A stretch of DNA of 27,572 nt from a virus (taxonomy: Duplodnaviria > Heunggongvirae > Uroviricota > Caudoviricetes), in IMG/VR virus record IMGVR_UViG_2639762873_000006, positions 1 through 27,572 of that record. One strand, 5' to 3'. The translations under genes were made by a program, and so were the position numbers. The notes below the pieces were generated by a model, which did no database searches, was not told the origin of the DNA, and was given only the letters and a program-made list of their open reading frames with translations. The stretch's first letter is position 1, and each line of letters starts with the position of its first letter. Of the stretch, positions 1 to 15,996 are shown in pieces.

Positions 1-294
1 ATGTCTAAGGGTGTATCTACTGATTTGATCATTAAGGCACATGATTTAGGATTCAAGATTAACGAGATTGATAATCGTGTAACGGGAATGTTTCATGTAG
101 TAATTAGTTCCCGTCATAATGAGCGTGAATTATTCAGTATGTTTCTTATGTCTGGTGGCTTGTTCCATTGGGAAAAGAACATCAATTTACCCAAGAGTGT
201 AACCGATAAGATCACTATTGCCCGATTCGATGGTGAACGTGCTTTCACTTCATTACTAGAAGTAGTATCCGAAGAAATTACTAACGTACATTAA
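1..294 (+). CDS. hypothetical protein (ATG at window position 1; may extend upstream of the window)
   Basis: 97-aa ORF from the six-frame track; followed by a hairpin at 299-337; no recognisable motif. Confidence 0.4.
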   Translation: MSKGVSTDLIIKAHDLGFKINEIDNRVTGMFHVVISSRHNERELFSMFLMSGGLFHWEKNINLPKSVTDKITIARFDGERAFTSLLEVVSEEITNVH

Positions 295-298
295 TCAA

Positions 299-337
299 TT
301 AACACTACTAGTACCGGAAATATACTGGTAGTGTTAA
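299..337 (+). terminator. imperfect hairpin after first ORF (about 13-bp stem, one mismatch)
   Basis: TTAACACTACTAG ... CTGGTAGTGTTAA inverted repeat directly after the stop at 292-294; no clear T-run. Confidence 0.3.
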
Positions 338-615
338 TATGGACACTCTATGAAAAAATTAACCTTTACTTACCTTGCGGCTGCAAATTTCTTTTTCTTC
401 ATTGCTGGGATCTTTACATGCGTATTAGTTGTATTGCAGGTGGACTTATAACCGAAGTTTTCGACGATCACGACCGAAAGGTAGGGGCGGTCACTATGTC
501 TAAGCATCCCCGACACATCAACAAGCCTTTTAGTGATGGTAAGAAGTGGCACACTACCTATAACGAAGCACTATTGAGCTTACTTACTAGAAAACGCGTC
601 AACATTAAGCTATGA
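331..615 (+). CDS. hypothetical protein, start uncertain (GTG at 331; internal ATG at 496 would give a 39-aa basic peptide)
   Basis: ORF whose stop overlaps the next start as ATGA (612-615), suggesting translational coupling; N-terminal half is Cys/Trp-rich and looks unlike protein. Confidence 0.3.
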   Translation: MLIWTLYEKINLYLPCGCKFLFLHCWDLYMRISCIAGGLITEVFDDHDRKVGAVTMSKHPRHINKPFSDGKKWHTTYNEALLSLLTRKRVNIKL

Positions 616-833
616 ATGATCTACATGAGCTAAACGTACTCTATATAGATACAGTACGGAAACTTACCGAAGAAGATCTACTAGGTGAATTTGGTCTTAC
701 CAGTGAGATGATAAACACTTTGAAGGAGATCCCACTTGCAAATATAGTTAAACTAACCGATTGTACTCAGTTACTGTTAAAACCAAATGAGGCTGTATTA
801 TGGGAAGCATTAAAAGCATTACCGCAAAAATGA
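612..833 (+). CDS. hypothetical protein (73 aa)
   Basis: ORF with ATGA overlap to both the upstream and downstream genes. Confidence 0.5.
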   Translation: MNDLHELNVLYIDTVRKLTEEDLLGEFGLTSEMINTLKEIPLANIVKLTDCTQLLLKPNEAVLWEALKALPQK

Positions 834-1483
834 TCAGTACGATTCTGAATGATGATTTTAATGTAGGTATGTTGACTGCCGACGCAACAGGCCGCAATGC
901 ACTGGCAAACGTCAACGAAGAAGATATAGATACACTTATTCAACGCCTGGGCGAAGTGAAGGACTATGTAAGCACACTACGTACCGAGCGACTAAACGAA
1001 GCTAAGAAGCTATTAGAATCACTTGTACAAGAGTCTGGTAGCTTCTCTAGTGTAGAGGAACTGCTTTCTACACTTGCCGTATCTTCTCCTGCTTCCATAC
1101 CACAAAAAGCATCGAAGCCAAACGGTAATAAGATATTCGAAGTAGTCATAGTTGATAGCAAGAAGGACGAAAGAAGAACCTATAATGTAATCAATAAGAA
1201 GTTACCAGCGGCATTACTCAAGGATGAAGTATACATTCAGTTGGTTAAGAAGAATCCCGAACTATCGGACGTTGACGAGTTTTTACGGGCGTATAGTGAG
1301 GACTATCGCAAAAAATACCCGCTTAATGCGAAGTGGAACGGTCATGAGTTCCATCTAAACCAGAAAGGGAAGATGAACGCGAAAGCACAAGAATACTACG
1401 CCGAGTACAAGCAGCAGTATCCTAAACAGGCCGACGAGCAAGACTTTAAAGAACTTGTTACTAAAGCGTATAAGGTAGTATAA
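830..1483 (+). CDS. hypothetical protein with Lys-rich C-terminal half
   Basis: ORF 800-1483 in the track; ATG at 830 overlaps the upstream stop (ATGA), so 830 is preferred. Confidence 0.5.
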   Translation: MISTILNDDFNVGMLTADATGRNALANVNEEDIDTLIQRLGEVKDYVSTLRTERLNEAKKLLESLVQESGSFSSVEELLSTLAVSSPASIPQKASKPNGNKIFEVVIVDSKKDERRTYNVINKKLPAALLKDEVYIQLVKKNPELSDVDEFLRAYSEDYRKKYPLNAKWNGHEFHLNQKGKMNAKAQEYYAEYKQQYPKQADEQDFKELVTKAYKVV

Positions 1484-1490
1484 GAATAAC

Positions 1491-1523
1491 AATAGCTACT
1501 ACACAAATAAAGTAGTAGCTATT
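1491..1523 (+). terminator. perfect 12-bp stem hairpin (AATAGCTACTAC / GTAGTAGCTATT, 9-nt loop)
   Basis: Inverted repeat read directly from the sequence just after the stop at 1481-1483; no T-run, so it may be a processing or attenuation site rather than an intrinsic terminator. Confidence 0.45.
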
Positions 1524-1591
1524 ACTAAATATCATAGCTATAATAATTCACATCAAACATCACCTCACACAATCACTACAAGGATTTACTA

Positions 1592-1972
1592 ATGAAAAAT
1601 CTCTTTACCCTAGCTGTACTCGCTACGGCTACAATCACTACTGGCTGTACTACTATAACGCCTGCTTTTATGAATGAAGCCGTAGTAGGTGATATTAACG
1701 GTCGTACACTAGTATTATTCCCCGTAAATGGTGGTAAAGAGTATCGCCCACAATTCAGTAGTGATTGTCAGCCTATGCTATTGGGTGAAGAACGCCCATC
1801 TACTGGTAGCTGTATTATTGCCGCCGACCGACTTACAAATATTCATAGCTTCGAAGAACATAAAGCCCACGGCCCCCACAAAAACACCACTAAGATAGTT
1901 GATCGTTCAAATAATTACGGTACAGAATTTGAGTTATCGAAACCAACTAATTATATAGACGATAATCTGTGA
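1592..1972 (+). CDS. putative lipoprotein (126 aa)
   Basis: N-terminus MKNLFTLAVLATATITTGC: basic residue, hydrophobic core, lipobox-like TTGC with Cys at about position 19; RBS AAGGA 8 nt upstream. Confidence 0.6.
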   Translation: MKNLFTLAVLATATITTGCTTITPAFMNEAVVGDINGRTLVLFPVNGGKEYRPQFSSDCQPMLLGEERPSTGSCIIAADRLTNIHSFEEHKAHGPHKNTTKIVDRSNNYGTEFELSKPTNYIDDNL

Positions 1973-2151
1973 TGAAGAAAACAATATTTGCCGTACTTTT
2001 AGTTATGGGGACTGCATATTACTATGATATAATAAAATACATTAACCCTACTTATTAAATTGCAGTCGCCGTAATCAAAAACACTGTCATTATCTGGCAT
2101 CAACAATGCCATTGATTCTGATAAAGTAGATAATCCCGAATGGATGAATTT

Positions 2152-2532
2152 ATGAAAAAGATTGTACTGTCTGCATTACTGTTAGTAGCCCCTTCGGTAC
2201 TGGCAGTAAATGTAATACTCCCTGATGATGGTTTATATCGTTGCGGTGTTGAATCGTGGGAACAGGTAGGAAAGCGAGTAGTAAAGACTGGTTATTATGG
2301 TATGACTGGTTATGTGAGTATTGATAACCGTGCTGTTAGTGTGAAGTTTAGGGATATGAATATTTCATTCAGCCCTGTTTCAAAACTTAAAAGCGGTCGC
2401 CTGATGGCCTATGCCGTAGATACTGACCAGTACGATATTATTATTAGTGCAATCAATGGTAAAACACAGTATATGGTCAGCAATGAGAATAATCCCGTAT
2501 TTTTGAACTTCTCCAATTGTATTATTGAATAA
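2152..2532 (+). CDS. secreted protein, paralog A (signal peptide MKKIVLSALLLVAPSVLA)
   Basis: Start at MKK chosen by alignment to paralog B; shared GLY(R/Q)C motif and C-terminal (F)(S/Q)NC(I/V) motif. Confidence 0.6.
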   Translation: MKKIVLSALLLVAPSVLAVNVILPDDGLYRCGVESWEQVGKRVVKTGYYGMTGYVSIDNRAVSVKFRDMNISFSPVSKLKSGRLMAYAVDTDQYDIIISAINGKTQYMVSNENNPVFLNFSNCIIE

Positions 2533-2541
2533 GGAATAGAA

Positions 2542-2928
2542 ATGAAAAAGGTTATCGTATCTGCATTACTGTTAGTAGCTCCTTCGGTACTGGCTAACAC
2601 TCACTCTCTACCAGAGCAGGGATTGTATCAATGTGATGTGAAAGTAGTTGAAATGCTGGGTGATACTCCAGTAGAAAAATCTTCTTATTCTGGTGCAGGT
2701 CACGCTAAAGTTAATAGTGATGGTTTTATCCTTAACTTCGGTGCAATGACTCACGCCACCGGACCAATAGAATCTAATGATTCAATGACAATGGCTTATG
2801 ATAATGATAAGCAGCGATACTTCCTTGCAACAATGGGAAGTAAAGAGCAAAACGATATTACTTTTATCTTCTTATTGAGATCTGATACTCGTAATTACTA
2901 CTTTCAAAACTGCGTTAAAATAAAATAA
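2542..2928 (+). CDS. secreted protein, paralog B (signal peptide MKKVIVSALLLVAPSVLA)
   Basis: RBS AAGGAA upstream; signal peptide nearly identical to paralog A at nucleotide level; mature part diverged. Confidence 0.65.
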   Translation: MKKVIVSALLLVAPSVLANTHSLPEQGLYQCDVKVVEMLGDTPVEKSSYSGAGHAKVNSDGFILNFGAMTHATGPIESNDSMTMAYDNDKQRYFLATMGSKEQNDITFIFLLRSDTRNYYFQNCVKIK

Positions 2929-2937
2929 GGGATATAT

Positions 2938-3147
2938 ATGTCAGAGAAACTAATTAAAGCAATCCGTAATATCACGGAATATAATATGAGTATTGAGCGT
3001 ATCATTGTTAGTACCGAAGACCAGCAACACTATTATAGTATTAATCCTTATAAGGAAACTGTAATAAAGGTAGCAGACCAATACGGCAAACCAATTGAAG
3101 GGGAAGTAGAAATACCACAAATACCGCCATTATTCGATACTAACTAA
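2938..3147 (+). CDS. hypothetical protein (69 aa)
   Basis: ORF with RBS AAGGGA; followed by an intrinsic terminator. Confidence 0.5.
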   Translation: MSEKLIKAIRNITEYNMSIERIIVSTEDQQHYYSINPYKETVIKVADQYGKPIEGEVEIPQIPPLFDTN

Positions 3148-3153
3148 TAATAT

Positions 3154-3180
3154 AGCCCACTAATAAAAGTGGGCTTTTTA
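3154..3180 (+). terminator. rho-independent terminator (AGCCCACT / AGTGGGCT stem, then TTTT)
   Basis: 8-bp perfect stem, 6-nt loop, T-run, directly after the stop at 3145-3147. Confidence 0.7.
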
Positions 3181-3198
3181 ATCTAATAAGGAAAGTAA

Positions 3199-3672
3199 AT
3201 GAAAATTATAAAAAACATTCCTTCACTTCCAGATGTAGAAGTGACACTAAGTAGCCGTACTAATGAAATTGTATTAGTACACAATACTAAAACTGGTCAT
3301 ACAGTAGTAGAGAATAATGATTCATGGTATGAGGGAAACACCGATAAAAAATCACATTGGGGTGATCATATCGATGATGCAGCAGCTTTTCATAGCTTCG
3401 CACAGAATCGCTGTACTAATCCCACTACTAAACCAGATCAAATTAGTGATTTAGCATTAGGTACGTTTTGCTTTCATAATGTATTAGAAGAAGATCTTGT
3501 ATTTGAAAACACTGATTACCATGCTGCAAGGTTATCCGGTATAGGTCGTGTAGTACCCACTGATTATAATAGTGTGACGGTATATGATCCAAATAATAAC
3601 CCACCAACCACTATTACAGGCGATGCAGCAGAAATTATAGTTCGCCTTCTATCAATGACAGTAACCAACTAA
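3199..3672 (+). CDS. hypothetical protein (157 aa)
   Basis: ORF with RBS AAGGAAA; no recognisable motif. Confidence 0.55.
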   Translation: MKIIKNIPSLPDVEVTLSSRTNEIVLVHNTKTGHTVVENNDSWYEGNTDKKSHWGDHIDDAAAFHSFAQNRCTNPTTKPDQISDLALGTFCFHNVLEEDLVFENTDYHAARLSGIGRVVPTDYNSVTVYDPNNNPPTTITGDAAEIIVRLLSMTVTN

Positions 3673-3678
3673 TAATCT

Positions 3679-3700
3679 AGCCCACTACTCACAGTGGGCT
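3679..3700 (+). repeat. second copy of the AGCCCACT / AGTGGGCT hairpin (different loop, no T-run)
   Basis: Same 8-bp stem as at 3154-3175 with conserved flanks (TAATAAT.TAG upstream, AATCTAA..AGGAAA downstream). Confidence 0.5.
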
Positions 3701-3725
3701 ATTCAATCTAACGAGGAAAAATATA

Positions 3726-4382
3726 ATGACAGGTAAAGAACTATTTGAAGAATTTATTATGCACGATCACCGCAAAGGACTTACATGTACTATTGATATT
3801 CGTCCTTCCAGTAAGCCGGGATTCGAACTAATCGGGGTAGGTCATTTCAATTTAGGTAAAGGTTATCGTTTCTATCTCAGCGAAGACTGCGTAGAAATCC
3901 GTGATAATCTATCCCGCTTACGTCATGAACATCGTAAAATAGTATCAGAACGGTTAGACGATCCAATAGAGGCACTAGATTCAATTATCTATTCTTCTCT
4001 ATATGGTGATTATCATGGCTGTACTAATCGTTATTTTGGCGGTGTATTAGTTCACTACGCATTAGAACTAAAATCAAAGATAACCGTAACTATATCTACT
4101 GATGAAAACTTATTGTTCAAAGATCTACCGCCAGATGTACAGGAAGAAATGAAGTATGATGTATATCTAAAAGATCGCAAACGTGTAGTAGCTTATGACT
4201 CATTACAATATAGTGATAATAAAGAATTTATCCTACAACACTATAAACCATGTGCCCCACATCCAAATCGTGTAGTATTCACAGATGGAACGGCAGAACA
4301 GCTACAAGATCAATCACCAGTACATATACCTGGCTATACTGAATACGTAACTAGCTATACTGGTAAACGCCACTTCAAGTAA
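3726..4382 (+). CDS. hypothetical protein (218 aa)
   Basis: ORF with RBS GAGGAAAA; no recognisable motif. Confidence 0.6.
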   Translation: MTGKELFEEFIMHDHRKGLTCTIDIRPSSKPGFELIGVGHFNLGKGYRFYLSEDCVEIRDNLSRLRHEHRKIVSERLDDPIEALDSIIYSSLYGDYHGCTNRYFGGVLVHYALELKSKITVTISTDENLLFKDLPPDVQEEMKYDVYLKDRKRVVAYDSLQYSDNKEFILQHYKPCAPHPNRVVFTDGTAEQLQDQSPVHIPGYTEYVTSYTGKRHFK

Positions 4383-4395
4383 TCCCATCCCCTAA

Positions 4396-4422
4396 ATACT
4401 CCTATACATGCTATAGGAGTAT
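4396..4422 (+). promoter_or_regulatory. perfect 11-bp stem hairpin whose 3' arm contains the GGAG Shine-Dalgarno of the next gene
   Basis: ATACTCCTATA catgc TATAGGAGTAT; GGAG at 4416-4419 lies in the right arm, 9 nt before the ATG at 4429. Confidence 0.4.
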
Positions 4423-4428
4423 CACACC

Positions 4429-4815
4429 ATGAATACAATCTACCTACACTTCCCTGATGGAACGTATAAGGCCATAGAAAGCACCACAGGCCGACAGGAA
4501 TCAGGATACATACCATCACGCAAGGATAAGCTAATAACCGCTCATATCATCACACAGGACGGTTACGAGCTATTCATAGATACCTATACACTAACGCTTA
4601 AGTATAAATACATTACATTAAACTACTCACGCTTCACCATAGGCCGTACTAATTACCCTATCAATGCACTAGATACATTCAGCGGTAGTGAGCTACCACA
4701 CTTAACCCGACTAAGGGAACTACGCGACGAGATCTTACAGTACCGTACCGTAGATGGTCTGCCTATCTCTTATCGTTGTGATGTAATCGTTAGTAATATG
4801 GTGATACTCAAGTAG
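4429..4815 (+). CDS. hypothetical protein (128 aa)
   Basis: ORF; its RBS is embedded in the upstream hairpin. Confidence 0.55.
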   Translation: MNTIYLHFPDGTYKAIESTTGRQESGYIPSRKDKLITAHIITQDGYELFIDTYTLTLKYKYITLNYSRFTIGRTNYPINALDTFSGSELPHLTRLRELRDEILQYRTVDGLPISYRCDVIVSNMVILK

Positions 4816-4991
4816 ATTGCATAGACAATGCATAAACAGTGAATAATAGAATGATGGTATACTTCGGTACTGATAGGTGAAACATATCAACATTATGTGC
4901 AATTTGTGCGATTTTATCGAAAAATGATGAAATAAATCAAAATAAAGGTTGACAGTCCAAAATTATCATAGGTTCTCCCAAAAATGGCAAA

Positions 4992-5013
4992 GAGGGCGAG
5001 TTTTCGCCGCGAG
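4992..5013. other. GC-rich island in an AT-rich non-coding region; candidate cos/terminase recognition element
   Basis: GAGGGCGAGTTTTCGCCGCGAG is the only GC-rich stretch in the 4816-5132 intergenic region, about 120 bp upstream of the terminase small subunit; contains a GGCGA/TCGCC hairpin and elements like those I recall from lambda cos (GGGCG, GTTTTCGC). Confidence 0.25.
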
Positions 5014-5132
5014 TTATAATAAAAATACGTGAGAAATTTTACATAAAACAAACAAATATATAGATAAAACCTATTAGTACCGAAATAGATAGAAAATACC
5101 AATCAATGGAAAATGAATAGGAATTGCATAAA

Positions 5133-5702
5133 ATGGCAAAAAATAAAGACGATGGAACCCGCTATTCCTGGCAAGAAATCGCCGACCGATTCGGCGTAGA
5201 ACATTCCACAGTATCGCGTATCTGGTCGGGGAAAGGATTAGATATTAGCTGGCCTAAGAAATTAGTAGACGACTGGTTACTAGCGAACGTAATCGAACCA
5301 ATGCGTAATGGTGATGTGAAGGGAATGATCCATAAAGCCACACTACGCAAACTAGAAGCAGAAGCAGACCTAAAAGAATTAGAACTACGACAGCAATCTG
5401 GTGAACTAATTCCGGTAGCAGTAGTACAGCAAACATTATCACAATATTTCTATCAACTACGTCAGGTACTAAGAAGTATACCGGCAGCAAGTTACGTAGA
5501 ACTATTTGAATCACAGGACGCTTTAGAATTAAAAATTAAATTACAGGACAAGATAGACCGCCAGCTAGAGGAAATAGGCGGCTATGAATATGAGGGAACA
5601 TATGAAGAACAACTACCAGAAGATGATGAAGATCCTAACGAGGGCGGCGAAGTCGATCCTACCTCCGAAGAAACAACTACCCGCAGAGTGGGTAGAGAGT
5701 AA
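5133..5702 (+). CDS. terminase small subunit (HTH DNA-binding, acidic C-terminus)
   Basis: Immediately upstream of the large terminase; helix-turn-helix-like SWQEIADRFGVEHSTVSRIW near the N-terminus; track start 5124 is TTG, so the first ATG at 5133 (RBS AGGAA) is preferred. Confidence 0.6.
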   Translation: MAKNKDDGTRYSWQEIADRFGVEHSTVSRIWSGKGLDISWPKKLVDDWLLANVIEPMRNGDVKGMIHKATLRKLEAEADLKELELRQQSGELIPVAVVQQTLSQYFYQLRQVLRSIPAASYVELFESQDALELKIKLQDKIDRQLEEIGGYEYEGTYEEQLPEDDEDPNEGGEVDPTSEETTTRRVGRE

Positions 5703-7497
5703 CCTAGTCTTCCCCGATGGCGAACTACAAGGGCAACGCGTCAAATTATTTGCCTTTCAACATAAGCCCATCAACGATATAGTTAATCCACGTGTACGTA
5801 AAGTGGTACTAATGAGTAGTGCTCAACTTCTCAAGACAACGGTACTACAGAATAGTATGTACTACTTCCTCGCCAATGATCCTAGTAACATGATATTTGG
5901 CGGTGCTACTGGTGGTACTACTAGTAAATTTAGGACTGGTAAATGGCAAGCAGTCATCGAAGCATGTTCGGTACTGAAAAATCTCGTTAGTAATAAGAAC
6001 GACAAGAACTATACGAACAATGACAAGACACAACAAAATTTAGATGGTACGTTTACCTACTTCCTGTCATTGGGTAGTAGTGCTTCACTACGTGGTCTAA
6101 CGGCCCCTCGCGTATTTTTGGATGAGATATCCAATGTCAACGCCGACGGCGAAGAAGGCAATCCCTTGAAGCTGGCAGAACAGAGAACGAAAGCATTCAG
6201 TAACCCCCTTATTATGTGCTGTTCTACTCCACTTGATGAACATGACCTGATTACCCAACAGTACGAACAAAGTAATAAACAAAAGTTTTATGTACCTTGC
6301 CCTCACTGTAACCACTCACACGAAATGGTATTTGAAAATGTTAAATTCGAATGGAAGATTATTGAAGGCGGTCGCCGTCGTATTCCTGATGCAGACACTG
6401 CAAGGCTAGAATGTCCTAAGTGTAATAATGTAATAACAGAAGCAGAACGTGTACGAATGATCCGTAGGGGTGAATGGATAGTAACAGCACCAGAAGTAAC
6501 CGATATAATGGGCTATCACATATCTAGACTCTATTCCCCTATCAACTCGATCAAATCGATTGTAGCAGACTTTGCCGAAGCACATTATACCTTTGACCTT
6601 GCATCATTCTATAACAACGTCTTAGGACTACCATATATTGATAAAGAGAATACCGACCATGATTTAGTATTATTGGAGAACCTAAGAGATAGTGAAATAG
6701 ATATTAATAATATACCCGACGATGTACTAGGGGTGGTATACGGCGTCGATCAGCAGCTCGACAGGTTGGAGGTAACTACACTAGGAGTAAGTGAGAAGAA
6801 TCTCTATGTTTTAGATCATCGCAGTATATACGCAATTGACTGTACTAAAATCGAAGCCCCAGCATGGAATAAACTAACGGCCTTTGCCAATGCACCATTG
6901 AAAACACATTCGGGTAAACCACTTAAAGTATTAGCCGGATTCGTCGATAGTAGTAATGGCAACGCAACCAGTACCGTATATCGTTATTGCAGTAACTCTA
7001 CTATCTTTAAACCTATTAAGGGTGGTACGTCTAACTCAAACCCACTATTCAAAGGTAGTACCGCTGGTGGTCACTCCCTGATTAACCTTAATGTAAACTT
7101 AGGTAAAACGAACGTTAGACAATTACTAAACCGTGCTGTATCCGATAGTGAAAATAGTAAGGAAGTACAAATACATTTCAGCCATTCATTACCAGATGAT
7201 TACTTTATTCAGATTACATCCGAGAAACGAGTGATAAAGGCTGGTGCCTGGGTATGGGTGAAAAAGGTTAGTAGTGCGAGGAATGAAACTCTCGATTGTC
7301 TTAATTACTCGCTTATATGTTTCCAGTGGTATCTATCTAAATTGGGTAGTCAACCATTCCGACAACTAAGGGAATATAACGCGAAACAAAAAGAGAAAGC
7401 AGGACTAAATAAAGAAGTAAATACAGAAGAAGCACCAACTAAGCCAACTCCAAAACGAGTAATAAGGCCGCGTAAAGGTGGTGGATTCTTTAAATAA
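5584..7497 (+). CDS. terminase large subunit, lambda gpA-like family
   Basis: 637 aa, close to lambda gpA length; N-terminal LPAEWVESN...FP motif resembles the gpA N-terminus; zinc-ribbon-like CPHC ... CPKC; C-terminal ETLDC motif. The 5' end overlaps the small subunit by about 119 nt; alternative start ATG 5602 has a GAGGGA RBS. Confidence 0.85.
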   Translation: MNMREHMKNNYQKMMKILTRAAKSILPPKKQLPAEWVESNLVFPDGELQGQRVKLFAFQHKPINDIVNPRVRKVVLMSSAQLLKTTVLQNSMYYFLANDPSNMIFGGATGGTTSKFRTGKWQAVIEACSVLKNLVSNKNDKNYTNNDKTQQNLDGTFTYFLSLGSSASLRGLTAPRVFLDEISNVNADGEEGNPLKLAEQRTKAFSNPLIMCCSTPLDEHDLITQQYEQSNKQKFYVPCPHCNHSHEMVFENVKFEWKIIEGGRRRIPDADTARLECPKCNNVITEAERVRMIRRGEWIVTAPEVTDIMGYHISRLYSPINSIKSIVADFAEAHYTFDLASFYNNVLGLPYIDKENTDHDLVLLENLRDSEIDINNIPDDVLGVVYGVDQQLDRLEVTTLGVSEKNLYVLDHRSIYAIDCTKIEAPAWNKLTAFANAPLKTHSGKPLKVLAGFVDSSNGNATSTVYRYCSNSTIFKPIKGGTSNSNPLFKGSTAGGHSLINLNVNLGKTNVRQLLNRAVSDSENSKEVQIHFSHSLPDDYFIQITSEKRVIKAGAWVWVKKVSSARNETLDCLNYSLICFQWYLSKLGSQPFRQLREYNAKQKEKAGLNKEVNTEEAPTKPTPKRVIRPRKGGGFFK

Positions 7498-7507
7498 GGA
7501 AAATAAA

Positions 7508-7999
7508 ATGGCAATAGTTCGCAAAGTAACTTTAAAAGGCGATATCTTTAAAGGCGAGACTATTACATTCGATTACCCCGCAGGGTCAGAAGTAGACTTG
7601 ATTGATCCAAACGGGGTAAAGACCTCATATACATATCCCTTCCCAGATATTGATACTAGTAACTGGGTAGCGGGTGTATGGACTGCAATTATTAACAGTA
7701 CCGTAGCATATGGTGTACAACAATTCGAAGTAATAGATCCAACTTCTAAAGCGTCAGAATATAACGACCTGATGCAAATCATCAAAGATATTGACCAGAT
7801 CATCATGGATAGAATTAAGGGCGGTGGTGTATTAAGTCAATCAATTCAAAATAAATCATTAACATATGAAAGTAGTGAAATACTTATGAAACTACGCCCT
7901 GTATATGTCAGTCGTGCAAATGATTTACTTTCGGATATGAAAGGATTCAATACTGGATGTCCTATCAAATCAATTACTACATTTAGGAGATCTCGCTAA
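7508..7999 (+). CDS. hypothetical protein between terminase and portal (163 aa)
   Basis: ORF with RBS AAGGAAA; occupies the position of lambda W but is larger and shows no similarity I can recognise. Confidence 0.5.
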   Translation: MAIVRKVTLKGDIFKGETITFDYPAGSEVDLIDPNGVKTSYTYPFPDIDTSNWVAGVWTAIINSTVAYGVQQFEVIDPTSKASEYNDLMQIIKDIDQIIMDRIKGGGVLSQSIQNKSLTYESSEILMKLRPVYVSRANDLLSDMKGFNTGCPIKSITTFRRSR

Positions 8000-9495
8000 T
8001 GTTCGGATGGAATAAAAAGAAAGTAGAAGAACCAAAACAAAAAGTATTAGTACAGAAGCCAGTGAAGCTAATGAAGAATAACCCGATGAAACGTGCAATG
8101 ACTTCCCTTAATTTGGGATCATCTAGCCCTGTTATCTCATTTGGCTTCACTGGCGGTAATCAGGCTGGCAATATTAACGCCATCATTAACCGTAATCTAC
8201 CTGTTATGGTTGCAGTAAGTCGTGAACTCTCAATTAAGAACGGTATTGTAAAGAAATATGTCAGTACGAATAGTGCGGGTGTAACGGGTGCAGATGGCCT
8301 ATATATTCGTCCTTGTACCCATAGCTCCGACGACGAACAAGTTAACCAGTCAATCGATAAACAGATTGAAGATGCATTCTATGCATGGGCCGAAGATCCT
8401 AAAGCGTTTTCCCGCTGCGGTACTCTAGATATCAGTACCTTCCAACGTCTGGTAGAACGTACTCGATCAGTAGATGGTGATTGTTTCATTCGCGTTCACA
8501 GTAAGCCAGGAGAGCTACCACAGATTGAGATTATCGATTCTATGCGTATCTCGACCTATGAGAACCAATTACTACCGTCGGGAAACTTTATCAGCAATGG
8601 TATTGAATTTGATATCAATACAAACCGTCCTGTAGCGTACTGGGTAACACGTTATAACCCCATCATGTACAACTATATGATTGGTGAGCGTGAGCGAGTA
8701 CCAGCAGACGAGATCCTACACCTATTCCAGCAGGACTACCCAACACAGCAACGCGGTATTCCAGATGTGCATTCCGGTACTGAAAAGTTAAAAGAGTTAG
8801 AGGAATTTATGGCGGCGGCAATTACTTCCCGTAAGGTTGCAGCGTCCGCAATGGCCTTTATCACTAATCCAGATAGTGACGATGTACAGCTACTGACTGA
8901 TGACAGTGTATCATACTATGATCAGGACTATCTAAATCCGGCTGCAATCGTAGAACTACAGGCAGGTCAGGATATTAAAACAGTAAACCCATCTCAGACT
9001 ACCGACGGTATTCAGGAGTTTATTGATAACCAAATGATGATGATTGCAATGGGATTAGATATTACAAAACAATCTCTAACTTCTGATACTAGTAATGCTT
9101 CATTCAGTGCTGCAAAGTTAACTGATAAATTACAGCAATCAACATTTAAAAGCCGTACTAATGCTTTAATTGTATCTGTACTAAAACCTCTTTATATTGC
9201 ATGGTTAAAATCTGCAATGCTAAATAGTAGTACATTAAGCAATTTAAATTTTAGTGATTTTAATAAATTGACTCATGCACAATATGTACAGACGCGTCAA
9301 ATCTCCCTAGATCCATATAAAGACCTTCAAACCGAAGTATTGGCAATTGATAACGGTTTAAAGAGTAAGGCAATGGTAATTTCGGAGATGGGATACGATC
9401 CGGTTATTGTCATGGAAGAAATCAACAAGGAAAATAAAGAAAATGGAATTGAACAAGAACCAGACGAGGGCGATCAATCTAACACAAATCAATAA
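7999..9495 (+). CDS. portal protein
   Basis: 498-aa ORF immediately after the terminase module, strong AGGAG RBS, acidic C-terminal tail; assignment is by position and size, not by a recognised motif. Confidence 0.65.
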   Translation: MFGWNKKKVEEPKQKVLVQKPVKLMKNNPMKRAMTSLNLGSSSPVISFGFTGGNQAGNINAIINRNLPVMVAVSRELSIKNGIVKKYVSTNSAGVTGADGLYIRPCTHSSDDEQVNQSIDKQIEDAFYAWAEDPKAFSRCGTLDISTFQRLVERTRSVDGDCFIRVHSKPGELPQIEIIDSMRISTYENQLLPSGNFISNGIEFDINTNRPVAYWVTRYNPIMYNYMIGERERVPADEILHLFQQDYPTQQRGIPDVHSGTEKLKELEEFMAAAITSRKVAASAMAFITNPDSDDVQLLTDDSVSYYDQDYLNPAAIVELQAGQDIKTVNPSQTTDGIQEFIDNQMMMIAMGLDITKQSLTSDTSNASFSAAKLTDKLQQSTFKSRTNALIVSVLKPLYIAWLKSAMLNSSTLSNLNFSDFNKLTHAQYVQTRQISLDPYKDLQTEVLAIDNGLKSKAMVISEMGYDPVIVMEEINKENKENGIEQEPDEGDQSNTNQ

Positions 9496-12046: not shown

Positions 12047-15000
12047 ATGGCAGATCAAATTTTTACAGGGAGTGGTTTTAAATTATTTTATAATGACGAT
12101 ACCGCAAACCGTATCCCCGATAACGCAGGGAACGAGCTAGTAAATGAATTGGCGGCTATGCCTTCATTCGGTATTGATAGCCAAGTACAAACTATTGAAG
12201 TATATAACAGTGAATTTTCAGAGAAACTACTCGCAGAACAGAACGTAAACGATATTGATATTGTTGTTAACTACGTACCAGATTGCACCGCTCACGCATT
12301 TTTAGATCAAGCGACCGAAGATCAGACCGAGTTCCAGCTAACACTACAGTACGCCGTAACTGATGGTATCATCTCCTACAGTATGGTGAATGGTATGATT
12401 AGTTCCGCTCGCCTTGCTGGTGATAAAGACTCAGTAGTTACTAAATCATATACCTTTACCCCTACCGACGTTCTAGTACGTGATGGACAGGCACCATTGA
12501 GTACCGGACTAGTTGTAGGATCATATGGCGTAGGTAGTAACGGCGTAGACGTACCACAGTACGAACCACAGTTACCAAATGGCAACAGTTTTATCAAAGT
12601 ACCAGCAGCACGCAATGATAACCCAGCTAGTGCGGATCTAATGGGTATTGGTCTTATCGATTCCGGTACATTCTCCAGTATTGCAATGACTAAATCCGGT
12701 ACATTGGCAATCTATGCAAAGAACCAGAATACAGCATGGACGCGTATACTTACTGCAACTCAGATTAGTGATCAGTATGTACCACTTACGCGTAAGGTTA
12801 ATGGTAAAGCACTAAATGCAGATATTACTATTACTAAAGTAGATGTAGGACTAGGTAACGTAACTAATGATGCACAATTGAAAATAGCTAGTAACCTTTC
12901 TGATTTAAATAACGTCAACACAGCCCGTACTAACTTAAAAGTAGCTCGTTTTGAAGAAACTAGACCAGACCTAAGTACAATTTATTCTACTGATGATAAG
13001 TCTGGATATAAAGTAGTAGTACGTAGTGATGGCTATTGGGGTGCAATGAATGCAGACGGCACAGTCACTAAAGGTCTATCGATTGACATGGGCGGTACTG
13101 GTGCAAATACATTAGCACAAGCTCAAGCTAATCTAGGTATTGTAACTAGTGCGGCACAGGATGGAAAATATCTAGCTAAGGCAAGTAACCTTTCTGATTT
13201 ACCAAGTAAACCAACAGCCCGTACTAACTTAGGATTAGGTACAGCAGCTACATATAATGTAAGTAGTTCCGGTGCAAACGTTCCATTAATGAGTAGTGCA
13301 AATACGTGGACTGGAATACAATATTTTGGCAATGCACAATTTACATCTACCTATGTTAACCCGTTATTGATTCATAGTCCTACACCTACAATCTATTTGA
13401 AAGATACAGATACAAACGGCTTAGGGATGAAATTAATTGCAGATGGTAGTGTATTCCGTATGCAAGATGATACCTCCGCTGAAACGTGGGCTTTTTCTTA
13501 TAATTACAGTACGAAAGTAGTTACAATGCCATCCTTGCAACTTGCAACTAAACTACAAGTAGCAGAAGGCGGTACGGGTGCAACAAATTGGAAACAGGCA
13601 GCATATAACCTTAACGTTATGCCATATAACCGCAATAGTTTAACTGCAAGTGATAATCTCAATAATTTTGGTGGTCTTAATGCTGGTGTATATTTTTGTG
13701 CTTCAAGTGCTTATGCAACCCCTGCAAATAACTACCCAGAAGCTAACGCAGGTACAGTAATAGTTTATCAGAACGCCGCAAATAGTAGTGATGGTTGTAC
13801 ACAATTTTACTATCCATTCAATACTAACAAAGCATATAAACGTATTCTAAGATTTACCAGTCCAACTACTTCTACGTGGTCATCATGGGCAGAGATCCTA
13901 ACCTCCGAACATATTACCCCCGGTAATATCCCTCGTTTAAATGGTGGTAATACGTGGAATGGTAACCAATCTATTGATACTGGTTATCTAACACTAGGTT
14001 TAAAAAATACCAATGCAACCGCATTTGAAATTGGTAGCCAAACTACAAAAAACTCAGCTTATATTGACTTCCATACAAGCGGTTTAACTAATGACTATGA
14101 TACACGTATTATTGCAGAAACTACTACATCCACTGCAAATGGACAAGGTAAATTATCCTTCGTTGGTGGTGAGTTTAACTTTAATAATAATATTACAGGT
14201 CAGGGAAATATTACGGCTAATGCCTTTATCTCTAAAACTGTAGTTAGTGCAACTGGTGCTATCACTGGTGCAAGCCTCAATACTGGATCTGGTGCTATCA
14301 CTGGTGGTGCAATTAGCGGTACTACATTGACTACAACAGGAGCGGCGAAAGTAGGTAGTATTGATTCTACTGGTGGTCTATATGGGACTGGTGTAGTACA
14401 GGCAGATTCAGCCACTACTGGTACTTATATTAGAATGGGTAATGGTACAACTGATAACTATATCACAAGTAACAACTTCCCAGCAGGCGGTACACAACGC
14501 TATCTACAGTTCAAGAATGACGGTACTGTTAGAATCTCCGACCAGTTGATTATGCACAATAACTTAGATGCAAGTGGTAGCGACTTCCAAGTTACGGCTA
14601 ATAACTTCCGTATAGTAACTGGTGGTAATGGTCTACAGATCAAAAACAATTCAGGATCTGTATCATCTTATCTATCTGGCATTGGGTCTACTAACGTTCG
14701 CGAATGGTACATAGGTAAAGGTGGATCAGGTAAAGGGATTGCATGGTGGAACGATATGTCAGGCGGTCACGGTGTTGATTTAGGGGCAGATGGTAACATC
14801 ACATTAAATACCCTTGCCAGTACCGGAAACGTTAACATACGCGGTACTATGTCAACTACTGGTAGATTATCCGTAACAGGTGATGTAACAGCTTCCGGTA
14901 TAGTTAGAGCTAATACTACTTTTTCAGTTAATGGTACTAGTGGAACTTCTAACGCCCACCTATGGTACTACGGTCACACTGGAGCAAGTCGCGGCGTAAT

Positions 15001-15481
15001 CTATGCGGGAAGTGGCGGTACTATTAACTTCCGACCGGATCGTAATGATGCTGGGGGAGCTAATGGATACTCCGCAGCACTAGATTATACTGGTAAATTT
15101 ACTTGTATGTCGTTATCTCAAACATCCGACCAACGAGCTAAATATGATGCCGCTGATATTAGTGATTCACTAGGTAAGGTACTACAGCTAACTGGTAAGA
15201 CTTATAAAATGAAAGTTACACCAGAAGTAGAAGTAGATGGCGTGGGATTCTTTGCTCAGGAAGTAGAAAAATTCTTCCCAGAAGCTGTATCATCCGTTGG
15301 TAGTGCATATACTCAAGAAGGCGAAGAAATCGAAAACCCACTAGGTCTAGATTATCAGGCTATTTCTGTACTATATGCTGGGGCTATTAAAGAGCTAAAT
15401 GCTAAAGTAGAAGACCAACAATTACAACTCGATGAACTACGTGCTGTAGTAACTCAATTACTAATCGCACAGAATAAATAA
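12047..15481 (+). CDS. tail-tube-domain / tail-fibre fusion protein with C-terminal S74-type intramolecular chaperone domain
   Basis: Residues 1-150 align along their length with the 152-aa tube protein (15538-15996), roughly one-third identical by eye; two phage tail-fibre repeats (NLSDL...ARTNL); Gly/Thr/Ser/Asn-rich fibrous middle; C-terminal SDQRAKYD ... GFFAQEVEKFFPEAV ... coiled coil matches the S74 autoproteolytic chaperone pattern. Confidence 0.75.
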   Translation: MADQIFTGSGFKLFYNDDTANRIPDNAGNELVNELAAMPSFGIDSQVQTIEVYNSEFSEKLLAEQNVNDIDIVVNYVPDCTAHAFLDQATEDQTEFQLTLQYAVTDGIISYSMVNGMISSARLAGDKDSVVTKSYTFTPTDVLVRDGQAPLSTGLVVGSYGVGSNGVDVPQYEPQLPNGNSFIKVPAARNDNPASADLMGIGLIDSGTFSSIAMTKSGTLAIYAKNQNTAWTRILTATQISDQYVPLTRKVNGKALNADITITKVDVGLGNVTNDAQLKIASNLSDLNNVNTARTNLKVARFEETRPDLSTIYSTDDKSGYKVVVRSDGYWGAMNADGTVTKGLSIDMGGTGANTLAQAQANLGIVTSAAQDGKYLAKASNLSDLPSKPTARTNLGLGTAATYNVSSSGANVPLMSSANTWTGIQYFGNAQFTSTYVNPLLIHSPTPTIYLKDTDTNGLGMKLIADGSVFRMQDDTSAETWAFSYNYSTKVVTMPSLQLATKLQVAEGGTGATNWKQAAYNLNVMPYNRNSLTASDNLNNFGGLNAGVYFCASSAYATPANNYPEANAGTVIVYQNAANSSDGCTQFYYPFNTNKAYKRILRFTSPTTSTWSSWAEILTSEHITPGNIPRLNGGNTWNGNQSIDTGYLTLGLKNTNATAFEIGSQTTKNSAYIDFHTSGLTNDYDTRIIAETTTSTANGQGKLSFVGGEFNFNNNITGQGNITANAFISKTVVSATGAITGASLNTGSGAITGGAISGTTLTTTGAAKVGSIDSTGGLYGTGVVQADSATTGTYIRMGNGTTDNYITSNNFPAGGTQRYLQFKNDGTVRISDQLIMHNNLDASGSDFQVTANNFRIVTGGNGLQIKNNSGSVSSYLSGIGSTNVREWYIGKGGSGKGIAWWNDMSGGHGVDLGADGNITLNTLASTGNVNIRGTMSTTGRLSVTGDVTASGIVRANTTFSVNGTSGTSNAHLWYYGHTGASRGVIYAGSGGTINFRPDRNDAGGANGYSAALDYTGKFTCMSLSQTSDQRAKYDAADISDSLGKVLQLTGKTYKMKVTPEVEVDGVGFFAQEVEKFFPEAVSSVGSAYTQEGEEIENPLGLDYQAISVLYAGAIKELNAKVEDQQLQLDELRAVVTQLLIAQNK
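12890..12937 (+). repeat. tail-fibre repeat unit, copy 1 (48 nt)
   Basis: AGTAACCTTTCTGATTTA + 12 nt + ACAGCCCGTACTAACTTA; both 18-nt blocks identical to copy 2. Confidence 0.8.
13184..13231 (+). repeat. tail-fibre repeat unit, copy 2 (48 nt)
   Basis: Same two 18-nt blocks as copy 1 with a different 12-nt spacer; encodes SNLSDL....ARTNL. Confidence 0.8.
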
Positions 15482-15537: not shown

Positions 15538-15996
15538 ATGGCTTTTTCAATTATGACTGGTGCTAACCTAAAGGTAGAGTTAGGCACTTATACAGCAGGT
15601 AGTGATACCCCAGCAATCGATTTTAAAGAGATTCCAGAAGTGGCAACCTTTGCTACTAGTGGTTTTGAATCTACTGTAATTGACGTAGTTACTTACAACA
15701 GTAGTTTTAACCGTAAGCTACTAGGTACTAAATCCATCCCAGATATCGAACTAACTGTAAACTACCTAGCAGACAACGCAGTACACCAACAGTTAGAAAA
15801 ACTTGCAGACGATCAAGTACGTACTCAGGTTAAAATCACCTACTACGAAAACGCAACCCGTACTACTGGCTTCTTTGTAATCTATAATGCTTTCGTATCT
15901 GCTAACTTGATTGCAGGTAGTAAAGATGAAGTAGTAACTAAGGCATTCACCCTAGCGGTAGATGGCGGTCCTCTTTCTTCTGGCGTTAACCCATAA
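15538..15996 (+). CDS. major tail (tube) protein
   Basis: 152 aa, strong RBS, directly upstream of the chaperone pair and tape measure gene; followed by a strong intrinsic terminator. Confidence 0.7.
   Translation: MAFSIMTGANLKVELGTYTAGSDTPAIDFKEIPEVATFATSGFESTVIDVVTYNSSFNRKLLGTKSIPDIELTVNYLADNAVHQQLEKLADDQVRTQVKITYYENATRTTGFFVIYNAFVSANLIAGSKDEVVTKAFTLAVDGGPLSSGVNP

Follow-up and report, generated by a model that had tools for sequence, protein, structure and literature searches.

The stretch of DNA analysed here, hereafter the window (27,572 nucleotides), is phage DNA and corresponds to a rare, low-GC, siphovirus-type prophage of E. coli. The GC content over positions 1-8800 ranges from 0.32 to 0.45, which is low for E. 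coli. A conserved 227-aa gene on one side and the terminase genes on the other delimit the variable accessory region in which genes A and B lie; the portal, major head, tail tube, tape measure, distal tail and central fibre genes are located downstream. The features referred to in the text are as follows (window coordinates).

1592-1972, + strand: upstream gene of a predicted 126-aa lipoprotein, leader ending in ...TTGC
2152-2532, + strand: gene A ("slot 1"), from the ORF list, 126-aa precursor of a predicted small exported beta-barrel protein
2152-2205, + strand: leader of A, codons 1-18 (MKKIVLSALLLVAPSVLA), from sequence inspection
2170-2204, + strand: patch copy 1, codons 7-18 of A minus the last base
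2206-2529, + strand: mature domain of A, 108 aa, with a Cys near each end (GLYRC ... FSNC)
2524-2559, + strand: left junction of slot 2, comprising the 3' end of A, a ribosome-binding site and codons 1-6 of B
2542-2928, + strand: gene B ("slot 2"), paralogue of A, 128 aa, leader of the same type
2560-2594, + strand: patch copy 2, codons 7-18 of B minus the last base
2596-2925, + strand: mature domain of B, 110 aa
2938-3147, + strand: 69-aa gene, which accompanies B in every locus bearing B
3154-3175, + strand: terminator-like hairpin AGCCCACT-N6-AGTGGGCT with a T-run behind it, closing the A-B-69aa cassette on the right
5124-5702: small terminase subunit gene, with a TTG start in the ORF list
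5584-7497: large terminase subunit gene

An in-frame ATG located upstream of gene A, at position 2140, is an alternative start for some gene callers, and a weakly promoter-like sequence is present at 2106-2134. Slot 1 is preceded by the 126-aa lipoprotein gene, a conserved left neighbour, in most of the related prophages of E. coli, loci L009 and L010 being exceptions. A 73-aa variant of the 69-aa gene occurs in L019 and L020.

The first-pass annotation reported that 34 of 35 nucleotides are identical between positions 2170-2204 and 2561-2595. The match is present and its first interval is correct, but the second was placed one base too far downstream and lies at 2560-2594. The only mismatch is a C/T difference at the third position of an Ala codon, and both copies are in frame within the first 18 codons of A and B. 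The repeat is longer than the 35-nt patch, since 53 nt are 89% identical (2152-2204 vs 2542-2594) starting from both ATG codons. Shuffling the window 100 times with dinucleotides preserved never gave a 35-mer match at three or fewer mismatches, and no further copies of the patch were found within the window.

The prophage family is rare and undescribed. Neither megablast of positions 1500-4500 nor tblastn of A and B provided matches among 50,697 phage records, and the nearest large terminase subunit, from Escherichia phage DCP80, is 37% identical. The leader was present in 2 of 5,426 complete E. coli genomes, both of which are carriers of this prophage, and this disfavours a host origin of the leader.

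Several other features of the window and of its relatives were recorded. The small and large terminase ORFs overlap by 119 nt in different frames, and the large subunit is called at 561 to 637 aa on related contigs, its true start being uncertain. In the 1144-aa ORF (12047-15481), residues 1-144 form a domain resembling a major tail protein (phrog_158), whereas the remainder is tail-fibre-like and ends in a C-terminal Peptidase_S74 chaperone domain; this fusion of a tube protein to a fibre is unusual. It is followed by the gene of a 152-aa tail tube protein of the same family (15538-15996). A phage lysozyme gene (PF00959) occupies positions 25453-25905 on the minus strand, opposite to nearly all the other genes of the window, and abuts a gene for a SegE-like GIY-YIG homing endonuclease (PF19835; 25895-26383, plus strand). 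In L009, which is more distantly related, a nuclease gene of the OLD family (AAA_15/AAA_21 plus OLD-like TOPRIM; 4795-6615 of that locus, opposite strand) separates the family member from the small terminase gene, indicating that the pre-terminase region is also home to a known type of defence gene.

Predicted export and fold of the A and B proteins

By inspection, the leaders of A and B consist of MKK, IVLSALLLVAPSV and V-L-A, followed by V in A or by N in B; the leader of B reads MKKVIVSALLLVAPSVLA. They display a positively charged n-region, a hydrophobic h-region of about 10-15 residues, small uncharged residues at positions -3 and -1 (A-x-A type) and no Cys at +1, as in substrates of Sec and signal peptidase I. 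Export of A and B by Sec with cleavage after VLA is predicted from this pattern. Processing as lipoproteins by signal peptidase II was discarded, because there is no Cys in or just after the leader. The lipobox Cys is present in the upstream 126-aa gene (...TTGC) and in the alternative slot-2 gene (...LSGC/LTGC).

The AlphaFold2 model of A (pLDDT 86, with residues 1-11, in the disordered leader, below 50) has 9 strands, and the family is modelled with good confidence as a putative eight-stranded beta-barrel. According to this model A would be an all-beta soluble barrel, and the predicted fold of the family may resemble that of PliC/MliC. In both A and B a disulfide linking the first strand to the last probably closes the barrel. 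A Y-x-C in strand one and an N-C in the final strand are common to the family and to E. coli MliC. Membership of PliC/MliC (PF09864) was tried and rejected at the sequence level: hhalign against E. coli MliC gave a probability of 2.8% over 10 columns, and none of the 9 family members matched any Pfam entry, PF09864 included, at E values up to 10. The loop motifs SxSGAxY and S/T-K-G, which serve in lysozyme binding in MliC, were read from the E. coli protein and are not conserved in the family. B alone contains SYSGAGH (residues 48-54; window 2690-2710), similar to the MliC loop SASGARY of E. coli; this is probably a coincidence, since the motif lies elsewhere along the barrel and its column varies within the family. 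The family is at best described as a small periplasmic binder barrel, not as a demonstrable PliC/MliC member.

A, B and five neighbours gave no credible match in Pfam, PHROGs, PADLOC or NCBIfam. A PDB sequence profile search pointed to HA33 haemagglutinin components (best E = 0.003), a weak hit that was judged spurious. Only 6 proteins were retrieved by an exhaustive profile search of 1.84 billion representative proteins, which added two distant 165-aa relatives with an N-terminal membrane anchor. One of them is likewise encoded just upstream of terminase genes, so the position of the family is conserved beyond the E. coli lineage. A lysis-cassette or spanin reading of the three exported proteins was also rejected, given that the lysozyme gene is located elsewhere (25453-25905) and that A is modelled as an all-beta soluble barrel. 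Most plausibly, though this is weakly inferred, A and B would be binders or inhibitors that alter the envelope of the lysogen, for example in the exclusion of other phages.

Divergence of the leader and of the mature domains

It had been proposed that the mature parts of A and B are far more diverged than their leader, and this was borne out by the comparison of the two genes. In a six-sequence alignment, 15 of 18 amino acids are identical between A and B in the leader vs 20 of 108 in the mature part. A sliding window over the codon-aligned genes gave a nucleotide identity of 0.80-0.90 in codons 1-20 and of 0.33-0.57 elsewhere, which is not the uniform identity over the gene pair that had been named as evidence against a special history of the 5' end. 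Homology of the mature domains can still be recognised (BLASTP E = 3e-10, 26% identity over 84 residues).

The contrast extends to silent positions. Residues identical in A and B are encoded by the same codon in 13 of 15 cases in the leader vs 7 of 20 in the mature part (Fisher p = 0.005). Every one of the 12 leader-core residues has four or six possible codons, and 10 of the 12 codons are identical. Third positions agree in 10/12 codons of the leader core vs 21/57 of the mature part, this last value (0.37) being near the 0.30 expected from composition. In the conserved L-P-x-x-G-L-Y-x-C stretch, located right after the leader, the codons already differ in 5 of 6 cases. The Nei-Gojobori dS was 0.19 for the leader core vs 1.87 (saturated) for the first 57 mature codons. 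Silent-site divergence is thus far lower in the tract than in its flanks, as expected from recombination, and a dS of about 0.2 against saturation indicates that the leader DNA is young and the mature DNA old. Taken by itself, the silent-site test between A and B covers only 12-18 codons (p about 0.001-0.01).

Alleles, cassettes and chimeras at related prophage loci

The comparison with homologues in related genomes, which had been suggested as a check, was carried out on some 24 related prophage loci of E. coli. Among 5.8 billion proteins, the homologues of A form eight clusters, all of E. coli where the source is named, and they were found only in E. coli prophage contigs. B forms one 90%-identity cluster in the public protein collection and is nearly invariant over 24 contigs. 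The backbone of the related loci agrees with the window at 95-99% identity as far as the interior of gene A (slot 1), where similarity is lost, to return at window position 3187 or 4391. The arrangement of cassettes was mapped in 14 loci (the window and L001-L013). Slot 1 is always occupied by a family member, in three deeply diverged forms, and the contents of slot 2 vary.

Slot-1 forms: the A of the window; the "KEVKVD" form (P0005); the "NVELP" form (P0007)
Slot-2 contents: B plus the 69-aa gene; or a 152-aa lipoprotein gene; or a 232-aa gene

The three slot-1 forms have the same upstream DNA and leader DNA (54/54 or 52/54 nucleotides of the leader), the leader being shared by every slot-1 allele of the E. 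coli prophage lineage, whereas the mature parts show a nucleotide identity of 0.45-0.57. The forms first diverge at the last codon of the leader, after ...CTGGC, that is, at the signal-peptidase site. The slot-1 genes of L008 and L009 (L008A and L009A) show the reverse pattern, with an identity of 0.87 in the mature part and of 0.75 in the leader; their leaders differ because L009 has a different backbone. The leader of L008A groups with that of the window and its mature domain with that of L009A. This discordance indicates that leader and mature domain have different histories.

Chimeric alleles are present as well. P0004 (L011-L013) follows A up to residue 68 and P0005 thereafter, and the allele of L019 and L020 joins the N-terminus of P0005 to the rest of A. 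Their crossovers coincide with the patches of retained similarity LPDDGLYRCGV and SVK..NISFSP, and slot-1 forms are linked through their 3' halves to particular slot-2 genes. The loci compared are mostly short-read assemblies, in which collapsed repeats could in principle make chimeras; the same chimeras recur in independent samples, which argues against an assembly artefact. Comparison of alleles thus revealed both the incongruence of tract and flanks and the chimeras that recombination leaves in related genomes.

The first-pass annotation had put forward recombination or gene conversion at the 5' end, or an exchange of mature cassettes behind a fixed export leader. The shared leaders, the L008/L009 discordance and the chimeras support this proposal, and the set of about 24 loci agrees with an exchange of mature cassettes behind a shared leader. 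One refinement is required: the cassettes exchanged are variants of one protein family and not unrelated cargo. A search for the same leader in front of unrelated cargo, using the exact nucleotide pattern, returned one IMG/VR contig of the same phage and none in metagenome and genome collections. With a degenerate amino-acid pattern, only unrelated and mostly high-GC generic signal peptides were retrieved, with no enterobacterial phage and no beta-barrel domain among them.

A second recurrent element was observed at the ends of the cassettes. The hairpin core GCCCACT-N-GTGGGC occurs in the window at 3155-3174 and 3680-3699, and elsewhere at about 5126-5148 in L007 and L008 and at 5389-5408 in L012, with upstream copies in most loci. 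It follows the 69-aa, 157-aa, 232-aa and 167-aa genes, which are the right ends of cassettes, and also the upstream 174-aa gene. No match to the core was obtained in 100 shuffles. These hairpins are probably terminators doubling as mosaic joints.

Origin of the shared leader

The question is why the leader DNA of two old paralogues is nearly identical. We consider it likely that the 35-nt identity is the footprint of homologous recombination, in which the signal-peptide stretch acts as the joint between the phage backbone and old divergent alleles. Phages that are co-infecting or resident would exchange DNA repeatedly and homogenise it up to the last stretch kept alike by amino-acid constraint, which would be the leader, and the survivors would be only those recombinants in which leader and mature domain are both intact. 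Survival restricted to recombinants with both parts intact would account for the boundary being located at the cleavage site. In the phages compared, at least three deeply diverged mature domains of slot 1, and that of B as well, stand behind the same leader DNA. A point against this explanation is that a length of 35 nt is near the lower limit for efficient RecA-type pairing.

The alternatives differ in what they leave unexplained. Without recombination, purifying selection on the signal peptide together with codon preference could have preserved the leader while the mature parts drifted or were driven apart. The (A/V)PSVLA motif is invariant in the whole family, distant members included, and the sample tested is small (12-18 codons), which leaves some room for this reading. 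It is nevertheless very unlikely, since the codons of the leader core are degenerate and yet 10 of 12 are the same, against 7 of 20 for identical residues of the mature part; the same leader residues are written with other codons in L025 (three synonymous changes) and in L009; the leader of the L008A/L009A pair is more diverged than its mature part; and chimeric alleles exist. Equally improbable is that a function of the DNA or mRNA conserves the 35 nt, be it a structure involved in translation or export, a small-RNA target, a protein-binding site or a site-specific recombination site. In A the patch does pair with sequence downstream of it in a longer hairpin (111-nt fold, z = -2.5), and the two copies are repeated in the same orientation 390 nt apart, an arrangement open to use by a site-specific system. 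However, the hairpin is missing in B (z = +1.4), the isolated 35-mers are no more stably folded than shuffled sequences (z = -0.1 and -0.5), Rfam gave no match at the patch and the window holds only these two copies. In addition, silent changes occur inside the patch in the divergent lineages L025 and L009, the B copy of L002 is altered at the 5' edge, and none of 24 contigs contains the product of an A-to-B deletion or inversion.

A recent tandem duplication in place, followed by fast divergence of the mature parts through diversifying selection or targeted hypermutation that left the leader untouched, appears the least probable of these explanations. It would fit the tandem arrangement, the equal size and the same predicted strand pattern of the two genes, and exported phage accessory proteins are often engaged in arms races. 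Against it, the silent sites of the mature parts are saturated (dS 1.87; third-position identity 0.37 vs 0.30 by chance), so protein-level selection cannot explain the mature divergence. B is nearly invariant in 24 contigs, and its ribosome-binding site and first six codons are unlike those of A. Moreover, the differences affect all bases instead of being adenine-specific, as they would be in diversity-generating retroelements. For the same reason, and because the window holds no second copy of either mature region, A and B were rejected as targets of such an element.

Under the preferred explanation, homologous recombination at the leader, gene B requires a route of its own. From position -18 to +18, B matches the junction of the alternative slot-2 lipoprotein gene at 27 of 36 positions vs 16 of 36 for the region before A; part of this likeness lies in a ribosome-binding site and an MKK start that are generically alike. 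From +19 to +53 it matches the slot-1 leader, at 34/35 positions for A and 35/35 for the variant of L007 and L008, while the lipoprotein gene matches it at 14/35. The switch falls at TCTGCA, which is common to both leader types and corresponds to codons 7-8 of the leader of the lipoprotein gene. As judged by these matches, the leader of B is a hybrid of a slot-2 lipoprotein-type start and the slot-1 leader. Such a hybrid might have arisen if slot 2 captured, in a single past event, an allele of slot-1 type together with its leader, the left crossover being at the shared TCTGCA in the leader of the slot-2 lipoprotein gene, or else by a short conversion tract between co-resident A and B. The polymorphic codon is GCC in A and GCT in B in every locus with both genes, and this fixed difference gives no sign of continuing homogenisation between them. 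The patch of B equals the leader of other phages (L008, 35/35) and not that of its own neighbour A (34/35), which slightly favours capture. B was always found in slot 2, its mature domain was not found in slot 1 among the related loci and no deletion product between the two 35-nt repeats was found in 24 contigs, so the capture route has no direct witness. The data fit both routes, with capture slightly preferred.

A more far-reaching reading would make the leader the selected joint of a "periplasmic effector cassette" system, in which a fixed Sec leader and terminator hairpins allow PliC-like beta-barrel binders to be swapped or stacked rapidly. We regard it as rather doubtful. If it were true, each variant would neutralise a different periplasmic threat, such as a tail-associated or secreted muralytic enzyme, a colicin or an effector, and A and B would be two specificities held together. 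Independently of this, the locus offers a mosaic border that coincides at base resolution with a functional boundary of the protein, the signal-peptidase site, which is unusually clean and occurs twice in tandem. The natural chimeras document additional crossover points and provide a worked case of short coding stretches guiding the exchange of modules. What seems most worth pursuing is the unannotated family of exported beta-barrels itself, whose pre-terminase position is kept even in distant relatives: it is a candidate for exclusion or inhibitor activity, and its variants are possibly specificities in a periplasmic conflict.

Comparison with known systems places these observations in context. 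As in the internal proteins of T-even phages, a short cleaved N-terminal targeting leader is followed by diverse accessory proteins. Recombination at a conserved motif, reportedly described by Repoila et al. in 1994, is said to shuffle the T-even internal-protein genes. In those phages a conserved capsid-targeting sequence precedes highly diverse cargo, whose diversity is thought to be shaped by conflict with the host (PMC3012670). The T-even leader, however, directs unrelated cargo to the prohead and is cut by the head protease, whereas here a Sec signal precedes members of one fold family. A second parallel is the lpl cluster of tandem lipoprotein-like genes of S. aureus, in which every ORF contains a short conserved nucleotide stretch proposed as a recombination site (PMC2568036). 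The 5' and 3' parts of one lpl ORF are incongruent, and the 3' part is linked to the next downstream gene (Tsuru and Kobayashi 2008, PMC2568036). Likewise, A and B are tandem paralogues of exported proteins, and the 3' half of a slot-1 allele goes with a given slot-2 gene. The conserved stretch of lpl is central in the ORF and belongs to a many-copy chromosomal island, whereas the joint described here is at the leader, in two slots of a prophage.

The locus also resembles the mosaics of temperate phages, for which homeologous recombination is an established source according to work on lambda Red and a survey of mosaic borders (PMC2327257), and in which exchange takes place at short conserved stretches and involves Rad52-like recombinases (PMC3945230). 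The locus shares with them a 95-99% identical backbone broken by segments of 40-57% identity with sharp borders and conserved gene order, crossovers at short patches of retained similarity, and accessory genes lying between conserved modules. Unlike in the usual mosaics, the border is intragenic, at the site of signal-peptide cleavage, and the joint is found in both tandem genes. The locus is thus a tidy case of known phage gene mosaicism, which calls for no new mechanism.
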